This document shows positions 22,016 to 28,161 of a stretch of 64,000 nucleotides of DNA, piece by piece. The notes under the pieces are model-generated. The model searched no databases, was not told where the DNA came from, and saw nothing but the letters and a program-made list of their open reading frames with translations. The DNA lies in the IMG/VR virus record IMGVR_UViG_2515154161_000003, positions 34,636 to 98,635 of that record. One strand, given 5' to 3'. The translations under genes and the position numbers were made by a program. Within the stretch, counting starts at the first letter, position 1, and each line of letters opens with the position of its first letter. This stretch comes from a virus (taxonomy: Duplodnaviria; Caudoviricetes).

Positions 22016-22696
22016 TCACAAGCCTCCATAAGCCACGACTCTGGTCTTGTGCTTGTACCGGTCCTGCTCTGCTTTCGCTTGTGCGCAGTAAGCGCGGAAT
22101 TCGCCTTCAAACAAGTCAGCCCGGCCTTTGTCAAAGGTCTCCGCATCCTGCTTGCCATATGCGAGATGCTTCATCCATTTGAGCAATGACCAATGATGGA
22201 TGTCTTCAAGCTCTTCGAACTGGGCGCTATCGCTCGCAAGCCTGTTCAGCGGAAGGCGATACACATGCAGGTCTACGATGTCATCTTGGTCTGGAACCAT
22301 CACCCAGCGGACTACATTTTTCTGCATCCCGATCACCATGTAGCGCACCGCCCCTGGCCTTTCATCCAAGACCAATGTCTTGACCTGCCCGTAATCGGAG
22401 GAACGCATGCGTCCCAGGTCTTCAGCGTTTATGATTTCGAGGGAAGCACGATCCGAACGGCGCGTGGCACTGATGATGCGCAGGATAGCGGGATGCAGGG
22501 CACTTGTCGGCTGCCCCGATACCACTGCCACCGCACATGCGGACGACATGAAATCAGGCAACCCACCGACGAGACGCCAGAACATCATGTACGCCTCGTT
22601 CATATACCGCCAGACTTCGTCATCCGACCACAGGTAAGGCTTGGCAGTATCCACCACTTCTGAGCGAAACGAGGCCAGCAACTCAGCCGGTGTCAT
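22016..22696 (-). CDS. Head-tail adaptor (tail tubular protein A-like)
   Basis: PYLWSDDEVWRYMNEA, HHWSLLKW...AYGKQDAETFD. Confidence 0.7.
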   Translation of the reverse strand: MTPAELLASFRSEVVDTAKPYLWSDDEVWRYMNEAYMMFWRLVGGLPDFMSSACAVAVVSGQPTSALHPAILRIISATRRSDRASLEIINAEDLGRMRSSDYGQVKTLVLDERPGAVRYMVIGMQKNVVRWVMVPDQDDIVDLHVYRLPLNRLASDSAQFEELEDIHHWSLLKWMKHLAYGKQDAETFDKGRADLFEGEFRAYCAQAKAEQDRYKHKTRVVAYGGL

Positions 22697-23140: not shown

Positions 23141-23587
23141 TTAGTTCGGAACCGTTTCGTTGGCACGGCCAGGGATCGTGTACATCACACGAACCGTGGC
23201 CTTGCCAGCCGTGGCATTGGCAACCGTCGACCCGATAGTCAGGCGCAGGTTTTCGCTGCTGCGGTATCCCGTCAGGGTCAGTGGGGTGCGCCCGGCAGTT
23301 TTGAGATCGACTGCGGCGGCATAGCGATTGGGCATAGCGGAATCGCCCAGCGATACGGTGTATGCCGTCGGCCCTGCCCCCGCTGTTTCCACCACGATCT
23401 CACCACCGATCACCACGGCTGCCTCGGGCAGATTGATGATTTCAGCAATCGCTTGATCCGCAAAATTCGCCCCAAATGAGCGCATCACGCCGGAAACATC
23501 GGAGATCGTGTCATCGAAGCTGAATGTGAATTCGGACACCAAGGGCCATTGCGCGGCCCGAGCTTTCTTGAGCTGGCTCATAGTCAC
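23141..23587 (-). CDS. Putative capsid decoration/cement protein
   Basis: Immediately after the major capsid gene; beta-sandwich-like LPEAAVVIGG...VSLGD...GKATVRVMY. Confidence 0.65.
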   Translation of the reverse strand: MTMSQLKKARAAQWPLVSEFTFSFDDTISDVSGVMRSFGANFADQAIAEIINLPEAAVVIGGEIVVETAGAGPTAYTVSLGDSAMPNRYAAAVDLKTAGRTPLTLTGYRSSENLRLTIGSTVANATAGKATVRVMYTIPGRANETVPN

Positions 23588-23590
23588 CCC

Positions 23591-24703
23591 TTACTGCGCC
23601 ACAAAGGCGGAAATGACACCATGATCTTCCTTGGTGCCGTCGCTGTACTGCGTAGTGAATTGCGGCTTCAGGAAGCCCAGAATCTTGCCAACGCTGATGC
23701 CGGGCTGGTTGTCGTAGTCGAATTCCTTTTCAACCCATTCCGGGTTGCCGATGTCGGCCATGCCGAGTGCCTGGGCACCGCAGAACAGCACTTGGCAACC
23801 ATCGACCGTACCGGTGGAGCCAAACTTCGACCCGGCTGGCGCCAGACGCGTGTTCGGCACATGCCGGAATTCATGCAGGTAGATGCCGTCGATCTTCACG
23901 CTCGACCCGGTGAACAGCTCGTTCTGTGCACCGCGCTGCTGTGCGTAACGCAGGTTGGCAATATAGGTCGGGTCCAGCTTGAGCCTGGACATCGCCATCG
24001 GGGACAGGAAGGCATGGAAGGTCTCTTCACCCCCATCGGCCATGATGCCCCGCATGTAGTTTTCCTTGGCATATGCCTTGAGCTGCACAAACAGCTCCCA
24101 GGACGGTGTATCGGCTGCCGCAACCGTATTGCTCCCACCGCCCTGCTCAATGAGCTTGCTGGCATTGTTCCAGCGGAATATGCGCTTAGCACTGGGGGGA
24201 GTCACGTCCTTGGCGAACTCCAGGTTCTTCAGATCGGAACCGATCCGGGTCTTGCCATTGGTGGCATAGGAGTAGGCTTTGCCTGCCAGAGTCAGAAAGG
24301 CAAGCTGATCGATACGGTCTGACAGCCAGTAGGCCAGCTTGTCGCGGGAGTTCTCGCGGAAATTCACCACCGAACGCTGGTCAGCCATCCGGCCTTCATG
24401 CCGGTTGGCATTGCGAAGCTGGTCGATCTGGATCACCTGATCGTAGGACTTCAGCACTTCCTCATTGCCTTCCAGCGTGCGGTCGCCCACCACCCCATCG
24501 CCTTCAAGGTCAGCCAGCAGGGTGATGACGGCACGCGCACCTTTTTCAGTCTTCTTCAGCTCCGTAATGTGCTGAATCAGGCTGTTGGCATCTTTGCCGA
24601 GGAATTTGTTCACATAGGAAAGGTTACGGGCCTGACGCCAGAAATCCAGGCTCCAGACCGTCTTCTGCTCATTGGTGAGCAGGGCAAAGTTCGTTTGTGC
24701 CAT
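23591..24703 (-). CDS. Major capsid protein (N4-gp56/DUF4043-like)
   Basis: LLADLEGDGVVGDRTLEGNEE, IDQLRNA, LFCGAQALG, EKEFDYDN, DHGVI. Confidence 0.9.
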   Translation of the reverse strand: MAQTNFALLTNEQKTVWSLDFWRQARNLSYVNKFLGKDANSLIQHITELKKTEKGARAVITLLADLEGDGVVGDRTLEGNEEVLKSYDQVIQIDQLRNANRHEGRMADQRSVVNFRENSRDKLAYWLSDRIDQLAFLTLAGKAYSYATNGKTRIGSDLKNLEFAKDVTPPSAKRIFRWNNASKLIEQGGGSNTVAAADTPSWELFVQLKAYAKENYMRGIMADGGEETFHAFLSPMAMSRLKLDPTYIANLRYAQQRGAQNELFTGSSVKIDGIYLHEFRHVPNTRLAPAGSKFGSTGTVDGCQVLFCGAQALGMADIGNPEWVEKEFDYDNQPGISVGKILGFLKPQFTTQYSDGTKEDHGVISAFVAQ

Positions 24704-24845
24704 GCGGCAACCTCCAAAAGTCGTTCAGGGTTCTCTTGGCCTCATCGCGGGCCGCTCGGTGCCTGTGTCGCTGGCAACTTGCGAGAAAACTTCAAACGAC
24801 TTTTGACGGGGACGAACCGGCTGCCTGTATCGCAGGTAGCTATGC
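24704..24845 (-). ncRNA. Structured 5' leader of the capsid mRNA (candidate cis-regulatory RNA)
   Basis: 11-bp perfect closing stem (24715-24725/24795-24805) next to the RBS, and three GCGA-loop hairpins. Confidence 0.6.
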
Positions 24846-24853
24846 GTTAACGC

Positions 24854-24890
24854 TCTTTAAGAAGTCTATACAACTCTTACAGATTGTCAA
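24854..24890 (-). promoter_or_regulatory. Capsid promoter with phased TCT-N3-AGA operator
   Basis: TTGACA-16-TAGACT on the minus strand; TCTTTAAGA at 24854 and TCTTACAGA at 24875. Confidence 0.7.
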
Positions 24891-25090
24891 GGGAGGGAGG
24901 ATGACCCCTTGCGCAATTACCTGCAGGCACAAGAGCTGCCCTAACGATCATAGCAAATACACATTCGGGCTGGGGTAGCCTACTGTTTTGTCAAGGGCAA
25001 AGCCAACACTGATCAACCAAGTAAGATCGCAGAAGCATCCTCAGCATAGGCCTTTTGAAATAATCCAAACGGGCGGCCGAAAAAGATCAT

Positions 25091-25684
25091 ATGAAATTTA
25101 GCCAAGAAACCCTAGGAAGAGCTTTGGATTTTATTTCCAAAGCATCTGGGCCAGTCGCGCTTATTATAGGTGCATGGTGGTCATACTCCCAGTTTACCAT
25201 TCACAGAGATAACGCCGAAAACATCAATATTGCTATTGAACCAAAATTGATTGCAAAAAATACAAAAACCCCACTCATACTGGCAAATGTCACGATAGAC
25301 AATGTCGGAAATGTCCCAGTTCGCTCAGGAAGATACGATGAAGAGCACGAGGGCCTTGAGCTTACGGTAATCGAATACAGAAACCCTGCACAAGGAATCG
25401 GCCCCAATCAACAAGTCATCGACTGGGATCTAGGTGGCGACGCGCCTCCACCTAAAGACTGGCCGGTGGTCAAATACAACATGATAGGTCAGTATCAATC
25501 TTACAAAAGTGGCAACTACAATCTTAATCCAGGTTCAAAATACAAAGAAAGTGTCGCCATTCCTGCAAAACCAGGAAAACTTTACTTGCTTAGAGTGCGA
25601 TTTTTCAGCGATAACGGCTGGAGTACCTCTGATTTGTCTTTTGTATATACCGATATCACAGCAAACCCTTCTACCACAAACTAA
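25091..25684 (+). CDS. Cargo: membrane-anchored hypothetical protein
   Basis: Low GC, antisense to the late operon; one N-terminal TM then a beta-rich domain. Confidence 0.75.
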   Translation: MKFSQETLGRALDFISKASGPVALIIGAWWSYSQFTIHRDNAENINIAIEPKLIAKNTKTPLILANVTIDNVGNVPVRSGRYDEEHEGLELTVIEYRNPAQGIGPNQQVIDWDLGGDAPPPKDWPVVKYNMIGQYQSYKSGNYNLNPGSKYKESVAIPAKPGKLYLLRVRFFSDNGWSTSDLSFVYTDITANPSTTN

Positions 25685-25777
25685 CACATGTCATTAGCAA
25701 CGCATAGCTCACCAAAAGTCACACTATTGTTGTTAGTCATAATTGCGCACTAACTTTTAGCAAAGAGGAGAACCAAA

Positions 25778-26569
25778 ATGATCATTGTAAGCTCACGGCG
25801 TGATTTTACAAACTCCGACAATTTATGCCAAGAAGAACATATAATTCGTGAAGTAGATCTAAAAGATGACAAGACACTAAACACATACTCCACAAAAGAA
25901 CTTGCAAACGCGATAACTGGTAAAAATATTTGCATATTAGTGCATGGTTACAACAACGAGTTCTTTGAGGTCTGTGATGCATACCAGATCATGGAAACCG
26001 AAATCCACACAAACCTACCAAACACCTACGACGAGGTAATCGGATACACATGGCCTGGTGGCGACCACAAATTGGAATGGTGGGATGCTAAATCGAGAGC
26101 CAATGCTGTTGCCCGACGGTTCCGACAACTTCTAGAGACATTACAAAACAACTCCACTATCGATATTATTTCCCATAGTCTAGGGGCTAGAGTTTCACTT
26201 AAAGCGTTAAAAGAAGCCTCTACGACATTAGTTCGAAACTACTACTGCATGGCAGGAGCTGTTGACAATGAATGCTTAGAATACAACGAGGAGTTCTTTC
26301 CGGCACTAAACTCTGCCGGAAGGATATTTGTTATGCATTCAGCACGAGACGAGGTGCTTGCAGCCGCATACCGAGCAGCAGAGTTAGACAATGCCATCGG
26401 TCTATTCGGCCCCGAGGACAAAAATTCTGTCGAATCGTCAAAAAACATATATGTCGCGAACTGCAAAGCGGTAATCTCAAGTCACGGAGCCTATAAGCGA
26501 AGTGAAGCCATATTTAGATACATTGGCGGCACTCACACAACATCGCCTAATAAATATGTCACGCTCTAG
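25778..26569 (+). CDS. Cargo: alpha/beta hydrolase (DUF900-like)
   Basis: LVHGYN, YTWPG, nucleophile elbow SHSLG, HSARDEVL, SHGAY. Confidence 0.85.
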   Translation: MIIVSSRRDFTNSDNLCQEEHIIREVDLKDDKTLNTYSTKELANAITGKNICILVHGYNNEFFEVCDAYQIMETEIHTNLPNTYDEVIGYTWPGGDHKLEWWDAKSRANAVARRFRQLLETLQNNSTIDIISHSLGARVSLKALKEASTTLVRNYYCMAGAVDNECLEYNEEFFPALNSAGRIFVMHSARDEVLAAAYRAAELDNAIGLFGPEDKNSVESSKNIYVANCKAVISSHGAYKRSEAIFRYIGGTHTTSPNKYVTL

Positions 26570-26749
26570 AAACAAGAACTTGCAAGCTCTGGAGGAAGTT
26601 GCATTGATCTGGGGACAAAAGTATAGCCACAAGCAAAGCTGGCGGATTCATTCGCCAGCTTTTCAAAGCGTGAGACTATGCCGATGATGTGTCTCAGACT
26701 TCCAAGATAAATGGGCAGCAAGTCACCTTTCAATATGGGTAAGCAGGCA

Positions 26750-27337
26750 TCACCACACCCACCCCAAGCGCACACGCCCCTGCACGCCCCCGCCCGATTC
26801 CCTGAGCGCTTCACCCCCTATGCGCAGGCGCCCTAGGTCGCGCTCAATCCACACGCCTGGGGTCTTGGCGTACCCTACGCTGATCCCTGCGGCCCAGGGA
26901 TGGGATTCAGGGATCAGTGCCGCTTCAATAGGTACGTCCAGTGCAGAGATAATCCGCCCTTCCGGGCTGCTGGCTATCACCCTGCGCCCGCCCTCCTCCT
27001 GCACCAGGGATAAATTCACATCCAGAGGCGCGGGGTCGCACTGGCAGCCTGCCGGGCTGGTAAAGGCTGGAGGCTTGAGCTTGATGCTCACTCGGCGCTC
27101 TTCAGTCACCCCCATCGGGATCTTGTGCGGTGGCTTGGTCGGGGTGGATTCCGGCTTGCGCTCGGCAATCACTGACTGATCAGACTGGCGCTCCTGGGGT
27201 GCGGCGGTGATCACTTCCGGCTTGGGGGCTGACGTATGTACACCGAACAGGTAAGAGCCAACCGCGACCCCTACAACCAGGGCCACACACACTGAGATAC
27301 GTAGCACGCGACCATAAGGCTGGATGGAGATATTCAC
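26750..27337 (-). CDS. Lysis accessory protein in the spanin position
   Basis: Follows the endolysin; N-terminal TM; C-terminal amphipathic beta-strands ending GWVW. Confidence 0.6.
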   Translation of the reverse strand: MNISIQPYGRVLRISVCVALVVGVAVGSYLFGVHTSAPKPEVITAAPQERQSDQSVIAERKPESTPTKPPHKIPMGVTEERRVSIKLKPPAFTSPAGCQCDPAPLDVNLSLVQEEGGRRVIASSPEGRIISALDVPIEAALIPESHPWAAGISVGYAKTPGVWIERDLGRLRIGGEALRESGGGVQGRVRLGWVW

Positions 27338-27339
27338 GG

Positions 27340-27852
27340 CTAAGCCTTCCCACACCAAACACGAAATTCACTGGCCTCGGCCTTGCGCCGAGCTGTCAAT
27401 CCGGCCCACCGTCGACCGCCTGCCCTATCCCACTGCTCAAACTGGCTCGCAGCGCCAAGGCAGTCACCCGCGTTGAGTTTCTTCATCAAGGTGGAGTGAC
27501 AAGCTGTCTGCGGGCCAACGTTCCAGGCGAAATCAATCAGCATTTCCCACTGGCGCTGGCTGATCGGCACAGTACGGCACTTGTCGATCACGGGAGCAAT
27601 AGTGGCCTGAATGATCTGGGCCTCTTTGTCGGCGCACTCGGCCTCTGTATAGCGACGCCCTGGCTGCACCCAACCCGGCGCAGCCCGGTTGGTGATGCCT
27701 CGGCACACGGTCAGCAACCCAGGCACAGCGGGGTCTTGGTACGCTACATACCGTGTGCCTTCGAAATGAGCTGTGAATGCAATCAGGAAGGCCGACACGA
27801 TACCGGTGGCCCCCACACCGATACTGATCCAGGGTGCAATCTCACGCGCCAT
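27340..27852 (-). CDS. SAR endolysin (GH24 lysozyme)
   Basis: N-terminal Gly/Ala-rich TM; FEG...YQD...TVCRGIT catalytic triad; FAWNVG; GLTARRKAE. Confidence 0.9.
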   Translation of the reverse strand: MAREIAPWISIGVGATGIVSAFLIAFTAHFEGTRYVAYQDPAVPGLLTVCRGITNRAAPGWVQPGRRYTEAECADKEAQIIQATIAPVIDKCRTVPISQRQWEMLIDFAWNVGPQTACHSTLMKKLNAGDCLGAASQFEQWDRAGGRRWAGLTARRKAEASEFRVWCGKA

Positions 27853-27854
27853 CG

Positions 27855-28142
27855 TTAATCCTCCTTCGCCGCGTCACTGGCTTTCAGCTTCCCCGCTTCC
27901 GCTGCTACTGCAATGCGATGCTTGAGCCAGGAGTTGATCACCCCAAACACAACCCCAATCAGCAAGGACAGGGCCGCTGCGTTGCTGTTCACCCAGCCAA
28001 GCACAGCGGCCAACGACAAGGATGTCATGGATGCTGAATGAACCCAGTTGTGCCGCTCGCGCCACACTACGCTTACCGCTGCAATCAAGGCAGCAATCGC
28101 CAGGACTACGAACACATGCATTTTTGTGAACCTCTCGCTCAT
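27855..28142 (-). CDS. Holin
   Basis: 95 aa, 2-3 TM segments, charged C-terminus, directly upstream of the endolysin. Confidence 0.7.
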   Translation of the reverse strand: MSERFTKMHVFVVLAIAALIAAVSVVWRERHNWVHSASMTSLSLAAVLGWVNSNAAALSLLIGVVFGVINSWLKHRIAVAAEAGKLKASDAAKED

Positions 28143-28161
28143 ACCCTGGCCTTTGCGACTG

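Follow-up and report, generated by a model that had tools for sequence, protein, structure and literature searches.

Why does the major capsid protein gene of this virus stand behind a leader of about 155 nt, counted from its promoter to the capsid start of the prophage, and what might the folds written into that leader do? In the window, by which we mean the whole stretch of 64,000 nt of viral DNA analysed, the gene occupies 23591–24703 of the minus strand (370 aa; Pfam Phage_capsid_3, 2.7e-32), with its ATG at 24703, and among cultured phages the nearest to it are the major head genes of the Pseudomonas phages KPP25 and phiR18, at ~68% nucleotide identity. The gene order runs from terminase and portal through a 316-aa scaffold candidate, an endolysin and two plus-strand cargo genes to the capsid gene, in agreement with the layout given in the earlier note. 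The promoter TTGACA-16-TAGACT, which the earlier note had placed ahead of a leader reaching to the capsid ATG, is present at 24863–24890 (minus strand); it is sigma-70-like, agrees with the consensus at 10 of 12 positions and, from its location, predicts a transcription start near 24856 on the same strand. In relatives a -10-like TAnAnT is kept upstream of the leader, often directly 3' of a terminator hairpin and its T-run, and in some of them hairpin and T-run adjoin the -10 (TTTTTTCGnnTAnAnT). A separate feature of the leaders that we group as clade C is a palindrome, (A)TCTAA-N1-3-TTAGA(T), found directly upstream of the -10 of the capsid promoter or overlapping it (e.g., L040:2871–2895, and also L036, L041, L080 and L002), which is a candidate operator for a transcription regulator.

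On the minus strand, the leader of the window holds a 5'-proximal hairpin GCG-UUAA-CGC (24844–24853), evident in the sequence and in the minimum free energy (MFE) fold, and then H1 (24820–24840), with a core stem CCUG/CAGG (24836–24833 with 24827–24824) around a CGAUA loop (24832–24828); extending H1 to 24840–24820 requires one A.C mismatch. The conserved element CCGGUUCGUCCCCGU (24806–24820) contains an anti-SD-like CC(C)C tract, the CC of which at 24809–24808 pairs with the GG of the Shine–Dalgarno (SD) sequence in the MFE fold. The 5' strand of a long-range stem, UCAAAAGUCGUUUG (24793–24806), has its 3' partner in UGAACGACUUUUGG (24714–24727): the perfect 11-bp core joins CAAAAGUCGUU (24805–24795) to AACGACUUUUG (24725–24715), and G.U pairs lengthen it to 14 bp (24806–24793 with 24727–24714). 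The 3' strand overlaps the first two G of the SD, GGAGG (24711–24715), the last G of the 11-bp core being the first G of the SD, all bases of which except the A are paired in the MFE fold. The stem closes a junction that contains a UCGC (24781–24784), the hairpin H2 (UGCC-A-GCGA-CACA-GGCA, 24760–24776) and, as third branch, H3 (GGCC-CGCGAUGA-GGCC, 24738–24753). The start codon is itself part of a hairpin, UGCC-GCAU-GGCA (24698–24709), with the A and U of AUG in the loop and the G and codon 2 in the stem.

Much of this architecture had been anticipated. The earlier note had read three GCGA-loop hairpins in the leader, and their positions hold, although the stems ACCU..AGGC and GCCA..AGGC had been parsed slightly wrongly; the multibranch (three-way) junction that it drew, closed by a perfect 11-bp stem running into GGAGG, is recovered by the MFE fold. 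Taken alone, the fold of the window is insignificant (-55.5 kcal/mol vs -49.1 ± 4.3 for shuffles, z = -1.49), and therefore the case for more-than-chance structure rests on comparative evidence. Hairpins with CGAYA loops are not enriched elsewhere in the window (15 vs 20.5 expected), so that a hairpin of 7 bp in the SU10-type adaptor gene (22496–22518, minus strand), with the loop GC-CGACA-AG, is probably a chance occurrence.

For the comparison we used 11 genome loci and 80 viral contigs encoding capsid homologs with 57–85% amino-acid identity, the homologs in viral contigs numbering at least 278, and extracted the 300 nt upstream of each start codon, which gave 81 non-redundant leaders; two covariance models were used, R1 for the clade-C tandem and R2 for the 3' domain of the window type. 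Two hairpins with CGAnA loops are found in nearly all of the 81 leaders, one about 85–155 nt and the other about 45–75 nt upstream of the ATG, and in an alignment of 50 units the C, the A and the final A of the core are invariant and the G nearly so. The claim of a repeated, conserved RNA motif is thus borne out for these two hairpins, but H3 is not a conserved member: its position is always occupied by a hairpin in relatives, with a sequence that varies and from which CGA is often absent. Spacing between the two units ranges from ~30 to ~85 nt, and extra hairpins are tolerated. The stem homologous to H1 has double changes in 7/7 pairs among 28 clade-C leaders, eight of which form it with a G.A mismatch unless one A bulges, and a pair in the H2 stem of the same clade is UA in 13 and UG in 11, a G.U-rich covariation that places the structure on the sense RNA strand. 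In a cleaner alignment of 25 sequences, 85% of the cells are paired, as against 72% in shuffles and 28–51% in slid registers. The consensus CCGRYUCGWCCYC(C)GU, represented by CCGGUUCGUCCCCGU in the window, is nearly invariant in clades A and B. A check for covariation in the leaders of homologous capsid genes had been proposed, and its outcome is positive for the stems, the pseudoknots described below and the long-range and start-codon helices. As far as comparison of sequences can tell, the leader is a real, conserved folded RNA, maintained in the roughly one hundred phage and prophage genomes sampled, relatives of KPP25 and phiR18 among them.

Each of the two hairpins is preceded, 2–9 nt upstream of its stem, by a (U)CGN whose N is complementary to the loop base N' that stands before CGA. 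The two bases form a Watson–Crick pair in 114 of 166 units, against 51.8 ± 5.5 in permutations, and all four combinations occur (C-G 60, U-A 32, G-C 16, A-U 6). In the H2 unit of 28 clade-C sequences the pair is CG in 14, UA in 13 and UG in one, with none unpaired, and in the clade of the window it is CG in 24 and AU in two, again with none unpaired. When the changes are followed on the capsid-protein tree, N differs in seven independent contrasts and N' changes in the same way in 4–5 of them and in the opposite way in none, remaining at a G.U intermediate in the others. The hairpin stem and the loop-pairing helix share no nucleotides, and the connecting loops (L1 of 2–9 nt, L3 of 2–4 nt) are sterically feasible for the H type. 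On this covariation, each UCGN/N'CGA unit is predicted to form a small H-type pseudoknot, with two per leader, and the invariant unpaired A that follows CGAn would sit where a minor-groove adenine is usually found in such folds. The complementarity of the junction UCGC to the GCGA loops, pointed out in the earlier note, is therefore real and belongs to a pseudoknot strand with N/N' covariation.

In the window, pseudoknot 2 is canonical, with UCGC pairing to the loop GCGA at 24771–24768. Pseudoknot 1 is weak, comprising 3 bp between CGC and the GCG at 24833–24831, and it competes both with the GCG-UUAA-CGC hairpin and with the G-C closing pair of H1; the (A)CGC at 24847–24844 is at once the 3' strand of that hairpin and the candidate 5' strand of the pseudoknot. 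This ACGN variant of the strand recurs in L006, L027, L049, L057, L065, L075 and L077. In the clades with short leaders, the 5' strand of pseudoknot 1 begins 6–13 nt after the -10, that is, at the predicted 5' end of the mRNA.

Downstream of these units, the ribosome-binding region is itself drawn into pairing. A conserved CCUC(C) or CCUUC tract is paired with the SD in the MFE folds of nearly all leaders, and some of these anti-SD tracts are identical to CCUCCUUA, which we take to be the 3' tail of 16S rRNA. The CCUC(C)/GGAG(G) pairing reaches perfect duplexes of 9–10 bp in relatives, such as GGCCUCCUA/UAGGAGGCC in L078; in the clade of the window it forms the outer extension of the long-range stem (CCUCCGUAA with UUACGGAGG in L004), the long helix and its extension together attaining ~20 bp in the window, L004 and L031. 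Cognate duplexes between leader and SD region average -21.5 kcal/mol vs -17.1 for non-cognate ones, with a median rank of 7 of 80, and the cognate duplex of the window is the strongest of all 80 x 80 combinations (-31.9 kcal/mol). In a model-based alignment, the long-range stem has double changes in 6 of 9 pairs. RNAalifold on MAFFT alignments (A1 and A5) did not recover this stem because its 3' strand was misaligned; the output held only a weak local CGRYU/RGUCG helix with one-sided changes, and re-alignment with R2 helped in part. The start codon is involved in a comparable way, as the spacer after the SD pairs with the G of AUG and codons 2–3, and the 5' strand of this hairpin tracks codons 2–3 in relatives (GGAC/GUCC, ACUC/GAGU, GCUC/GAGC, CGUC/GACG and others). 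Start-codon stems of at least 4 bp are formed by 52% of cognate and 16% of non-cognate pairs, with ten different 3' tetramers. The computed effect on SD accessibility is a modest drop in unpaired probability, to 0.22 from 0.28 with a shuffled upstream leader (79 leaders, p = 0.0014); in the window the values do not differ (0.29 vs 0.28). From these comparisons the leader can be classed as putatively SD-sequestering, an upstream anti-SD strand being predicted to pair with the SD and the flanking pairs covarying.

The relation between the pseudoknots and the sequestering helix depends on the clade. In clade C, the anti-SD strand (CCUCGUnnGUCG) also holds the 5' strand of pseudoknot 2 and part of the H2 stem, and owing to this overlap the pseudoknotted fold and the SD-sequestering helix are mutually exclusive. 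Constrained folding puts the pseudoknot-compatible fold of clade C a median of 7 kcal/mol above the MFE, the energy of the pseudoknot itself not being counted; a gap of this size is compatible with bistability, yet is too crude a figure to serve as evidence. In the clade of the window, the homologous GGUCG strand pairs far downstream and encloses an inserted pseudoknot unit (H2), together with H3, in the junction, and since the unit lies inside the junction, pseudoknot 2 is compatible there with the sequestering helix. Leaders of clade A carry ~100 extra nt with further hairpins. At L025:390–587 the whole leader module, that is, the CCGACUCGUCCUCGU element, the stem strand and a CGACA-loop hairpin, is duplicated in tandem with a period of ~82 nt.

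The element appears to be confined to one gene. Among the loci with capsid homologs, R1 matches solely the capsid leader, in the sense strand and with 33–77 bits, and each of five complete phage genomes of 64–70 kb has exactly one strong match, at the capsid gene; a second match in one phage genome (20.9 bits) lies inside an ORF. R2 matches the window at 72.7 bits and 25 loci, and every covariance-model match is on the capsid strand. A search with R1 over 151 genomes of the order of the window's host gave no true instance, the matches of 23–32 bits being treated as noise because none stands beside a capsid homolog. The leader of KPP25 is detected by neither model; by eye only, a single, reduced unit seems to follow a terminator and a TATAGT box there. 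No known family accounts for the leader, in agreement with the novelty that the earlier note had made conditional on Rfam: Rfam 15 returned only a chance match to SNORD75 for 23500–26500 of the window at E up to 10, no match over the whole 64-kb window at gathering thresholds, and none on the leader in eight homologous loci at E up to 1. A search of the rest of the window for a small RNA or other trans-acting complement to the leader gave nothing convincing, the best being a 13-mer with E = 0.12, and we found nothing in the literature on RNA elements or transcript mapping in Kochitakasuvirus.

The surroundings of the leader are variable. A homolog of the putative 316-aa scaffold lies upstream of the capsid gene in 77 loci, with a gap that ranges from ~170 nt, the leader alone, to ~1.9 kb, and the leader is kept in every one of these arrangements, including those with the scaffold gene immediately upstream. 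The stretch 24891–28161 of the window, with the lysis cassette and the two plus-strand cargo genes, one of which encodes a DUF900-type alpha/beta hydrolase (25778–26569), is the junction between scaffold and capsid promoter and leader, and over the 77 loci compared it is an insertion hotspot. L026 has an int-alpA RNA between the scaffold and capsid genes (803–870; Rfam RF02996, 46.8 bits, gathering score 35.8), and its major capsid gene is split by a group I intron (1719–2010; RF00028, 68.8 bits, gathering score 50), positioned ~40 nt 3' of the start codon and downstream of an intact leader (R2 match at 1575–1682). In L086, and likely in L029 too, an HNH homing-endonuclease ORF (179 aa, L086:2440–2979) is inserted between the conserved leader and the capsid gene; in L086 this ORF uses the SD of the leader, and the spacer before the capsid gene is new and short.

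In the light of these observations, we tentatively favor, with a confidence that stops somewhat short of even, the reading that the leader is a cis-acting regulatory RNA with a gating role in the translation of capsid mRNA and probably a second, protective role at the 5' end of that mRNA. Gating of ribosome access is suggested by the covarying helices over SD and AUG, by the overlap of anti-SD strand and pseudoknot, and by the single copy at one gene. In the ground state the initiation region would be closed, the leader governing access of the ribosome to the capsid start site, and its opening would set the timing or the amount of capsid synthesis. In clade C the leader could act as a two-state switch, since pseudoknot folding and SD sequestration exclude each other there; in the clade of the window, pseudoknot 2 might act from within the junction on the stability of the sequestering helix, or else serve as a platform for binding. 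The structured 5' terminus probably shields the transcript from 5'-end-dependent decay. Candidate triggers for the opening are a late protein of the phage, RNase III, co-transcriptional folding and a ligand. Several points speak against gating: the fold of the window is insignificant when taken alone, the computed drop in SD accessibility is modest and absent in the window, pseudoknot 1 has only 3 bp there, H1 carries a G.A mismatch in eight clade-C leaders unless one A bulges, no trans-acting factor was found, the competition between pseudoknot and anti-SD is a property of clade C and not of the clade of the window, and a closed initiation region would be an odd feature for the most abundant protein of the virion. 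In L086, moreover, the leader would act on the 5' end of the transcript and not on the capsid start site, because the HNH gene stands between them. A bolder version, in which the leader stands for a class of tandem-pseudoknot riboregulator that is new and restricted to phage capsid genes, with pseudoknots that sense a late protein or a small molecule and switch capsid translation on through anti-SD competition, we consider doubtful.

The same observations can be read in other ways. The leader might be a stabilizing or processing element at the 5' end of the mRNA that works without a regulatory switch and keeps the capsid transcript long-lived; RppH and RNase E would be blocked by a 5' end that is paired and by the lack of single-stranded stretches, and the long-range helix of ~17–20 bp may be an RNase III site, cleavage at which would free the SD. 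The ompA 5' stem-loop, the T7 gene 10 leader and RNase III processing of the lambda N leader are precedents. Such a role would suit a capsid gene served by a separate promoter just behind a terminator, as is typical of units with high output, and it would suit a structure that starts 0–5 nt from the predicted transcription start in all clades, that keeps its place at the start of the transcript even with an HNH gene inserted before the capsid gene, and that builds the ~20-bp helix of the window, L004 and L031. For this purpose, however, a plain 5' hairpin would be enough, and neither the two pseudoknots with their invariant CGAnA core nor the covarying helices placed specifically over SD and AUG would be explained; we regard a stabilizer without a switch as unlikely. 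Less probable still is a translational operator, repressing or activating, at which a phage protein such as free capsid or scaffold protein recognizes the repeated hairpins. Structured initiation regions are found in the MS2 coat/replicase operator, T4 gene 32 and Mu com-mom, and the initiation region is structured here as well; the similarity of the two units would allow a dimer to bind, an unpaired and invariant A follows CGAn, and the element occurs once per genome, at the capsid gene. The earlier note had gone in this direction, taking the repeats for a protein-binding motif that ties capsid translation to an assembly protein. Yet the conserved CGA bases of the loops pair with the upstream (U)CGN in a covarying pseudoknot, and this RNA–RNA pairing explains their conservation in such a way that, as far as the sequences go, a protein partner is not needed; the spacing of the units varies between ~30 and ~85 nt, extra hairpins and even duplication of the full module are tolerated, and the analysis turned up no candidate protein. 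No observation connects the element with the scaffold or with another assembly protein, and the argument taken from the split of scaffold and capsid genes falls away, given a leader that is independent of gene layout and present across all gaps in the 77 loci. What survives of the proposal is post-transcriptional control of the capsid gene as such, which is plausible given that the translation initiation region is embedded in structure.

A signal for processive antitermination or attenuation in the ~19-kb late operon, comparable to lambda nut boxB with N or to HK022 put, would use the promoter-proximal hairpins to load a factor onto RNA polymerase or to modify the polymerase directly, and we give it little credence. 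It would make sense of two conserved-loop hairpins that stand close to the promoter where a structural operon begins, of a leader that remains at the transcript start despite gene insertion downstream, and of an H3 that is terminator-like in 7 of 28 clade-C leaders; but H3 is terminator-like in none of the 24 leaders of clades A and B, to which the window's clade belongs, terminator-like sites in the late operon of the window are at chance level (19 vs 20.4 expected), and the leader of the window has no boxA-like CGCUCUUA. The hairpins do not have GNRA-like pentaloops, the loop bases take part in the pseudoknots, and the anti-SD and start-codon helices would be left unexplained. An attenuator was discarded as a general feature, a G+C-rich hairpin followed by a U-run being found in 7 of 28 clade-C and 0 of 24 window-clade leaders. 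Finally, the repeats might act at the level of DNA, as TCGN-N7-13-N'CGA operators for a dimeric regulator, or be due to chance, with the folds incidental. Symmetric half-sites would also change together, and the single-sequence fold of the window is insignificant, but the distance between half-sites ranges over 7–13 bp, the promoter lies upstream of the repeats, the intervening stems covary independently with G.U pairs that exist on the sense strand only, and the long-range and start-codon helices covary too, all of which makes this reading very improbable.

Regulation by a gated initiation region, the reading that we prefer, has relatives among known systems. In the alternative structures of lambda cIII mRNA, in the rpoS leader with DsrA/RprA and in Mu com-mom, an upstream strand pairs with the SD region and translation depends on a shift to another RNA conformation. 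The capsid leader has no sequence or fold homology to these, and its alternative fold is a pair of H-type pseudoknots. It resembles the leader of T4 gene 32 in that an H-type pseudoknot lies near the 5' end of a phage mRNA, ahead of the start site of a protein made in abundance; but the T4 leader, which serves autogenous translational control, has one pseudoknot followed by an unstructured A/U-rich tract, whereas here two pseudoknots are followed by helices over SD and AUG, and gene, sequence and architecture all differ. Like the preQ1-I, SAM-II, guanidine-III and guanidine-II (mini-ykkC) riboswitches, it consists of very small units with few conserved bases, arranged in tandem a short way upstream of the SD, in which a CG core of the loop makes key pairs and, in one leader clade, the pseudoknot competes with SD pairing. 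Guanidine-II, however, has two hairpins with ACGR tetraloops, whereas the loops of the capsid leader have 5–9 nt (e.g., A-GCGA-CACA) and the base before CGA can be A, G, C or U, in covariation with the upstream base; RF01068, the guanidine-II model, has no match in 23500–26500 of the window or in the eight homologous loci. The loop pairs in cis with an upstream strand and not, as in the riboswitches, with the other loop or a 3' tail, and the context is a phage capsid gene, with no evidence for a ligand.

Conserved-loop hairpins near the promoter of a long phage operon also recall the nut boxB of lambda and P22 and the put sites of HK022. The lambdoid nut consists of boxA and a 5-bp hairpin with a GNRA-like pentaloop that starts with G, in contrast to the CGAUA loop of H1 in the window, and nut sites head each antiterminated operon, with terminators downstream, whereas the capsid leader is present in one copy per genome. 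With the autoregulation of P22 scaffolding protein, the parallel would be a post-transcriptional control tied to head assembly; in P22, however, control falls on the mRNA of the scaffold gene itself, for which no RNA motif is known to have been described, while the element described here precedes the capsid gene, whether or not a scaffold gene is adjacent. The kind of element is known, namely a structured, pseudoknotted 5' leader that controls translation or stability, but the family and its architecture are absent from Rfam and we found no description of them in the literature searched. What sets it apart is that minimal pseudoknots, each built from a CGAnA loop and a 5' strand, stand in tandem ahead of a capsid gene. 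Fremin & Bhatt 2023 (PMC10690425) report 8,495 unnamed structured RNAs predicted from IMG/VR, among which the leader may be included, and the same paper describes the T4 gene 32 element as being without an Rfam model.

All together, if the bolder and doubtful version with a pseudoknot sensor holds, the leader would represent an RNA-based switch of late genes in podophages and prophages related to KPP25, a large group of which most members are uncultured. For tailed phages there is little documentation of how the major capsid gene is controlled after transcription. The leader is a compact RNA whose covariation is unusually clean, and relatives of KPP25 and phiR18, themselves therapeutic-candidate Pseudomonas phages, carry it. 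From a methodological point of view, a short single-copy motif with obvious compensatory mutations makes the mechanism directly approachable. Should the leader be only a stabilizer, it would still constitute a new and well-supported RNA family to be added to those in Rfam; should it be a true switch, it would provide a new way for a phage to time or dose the production of its capsid, and possibly a small portable regulatory part.
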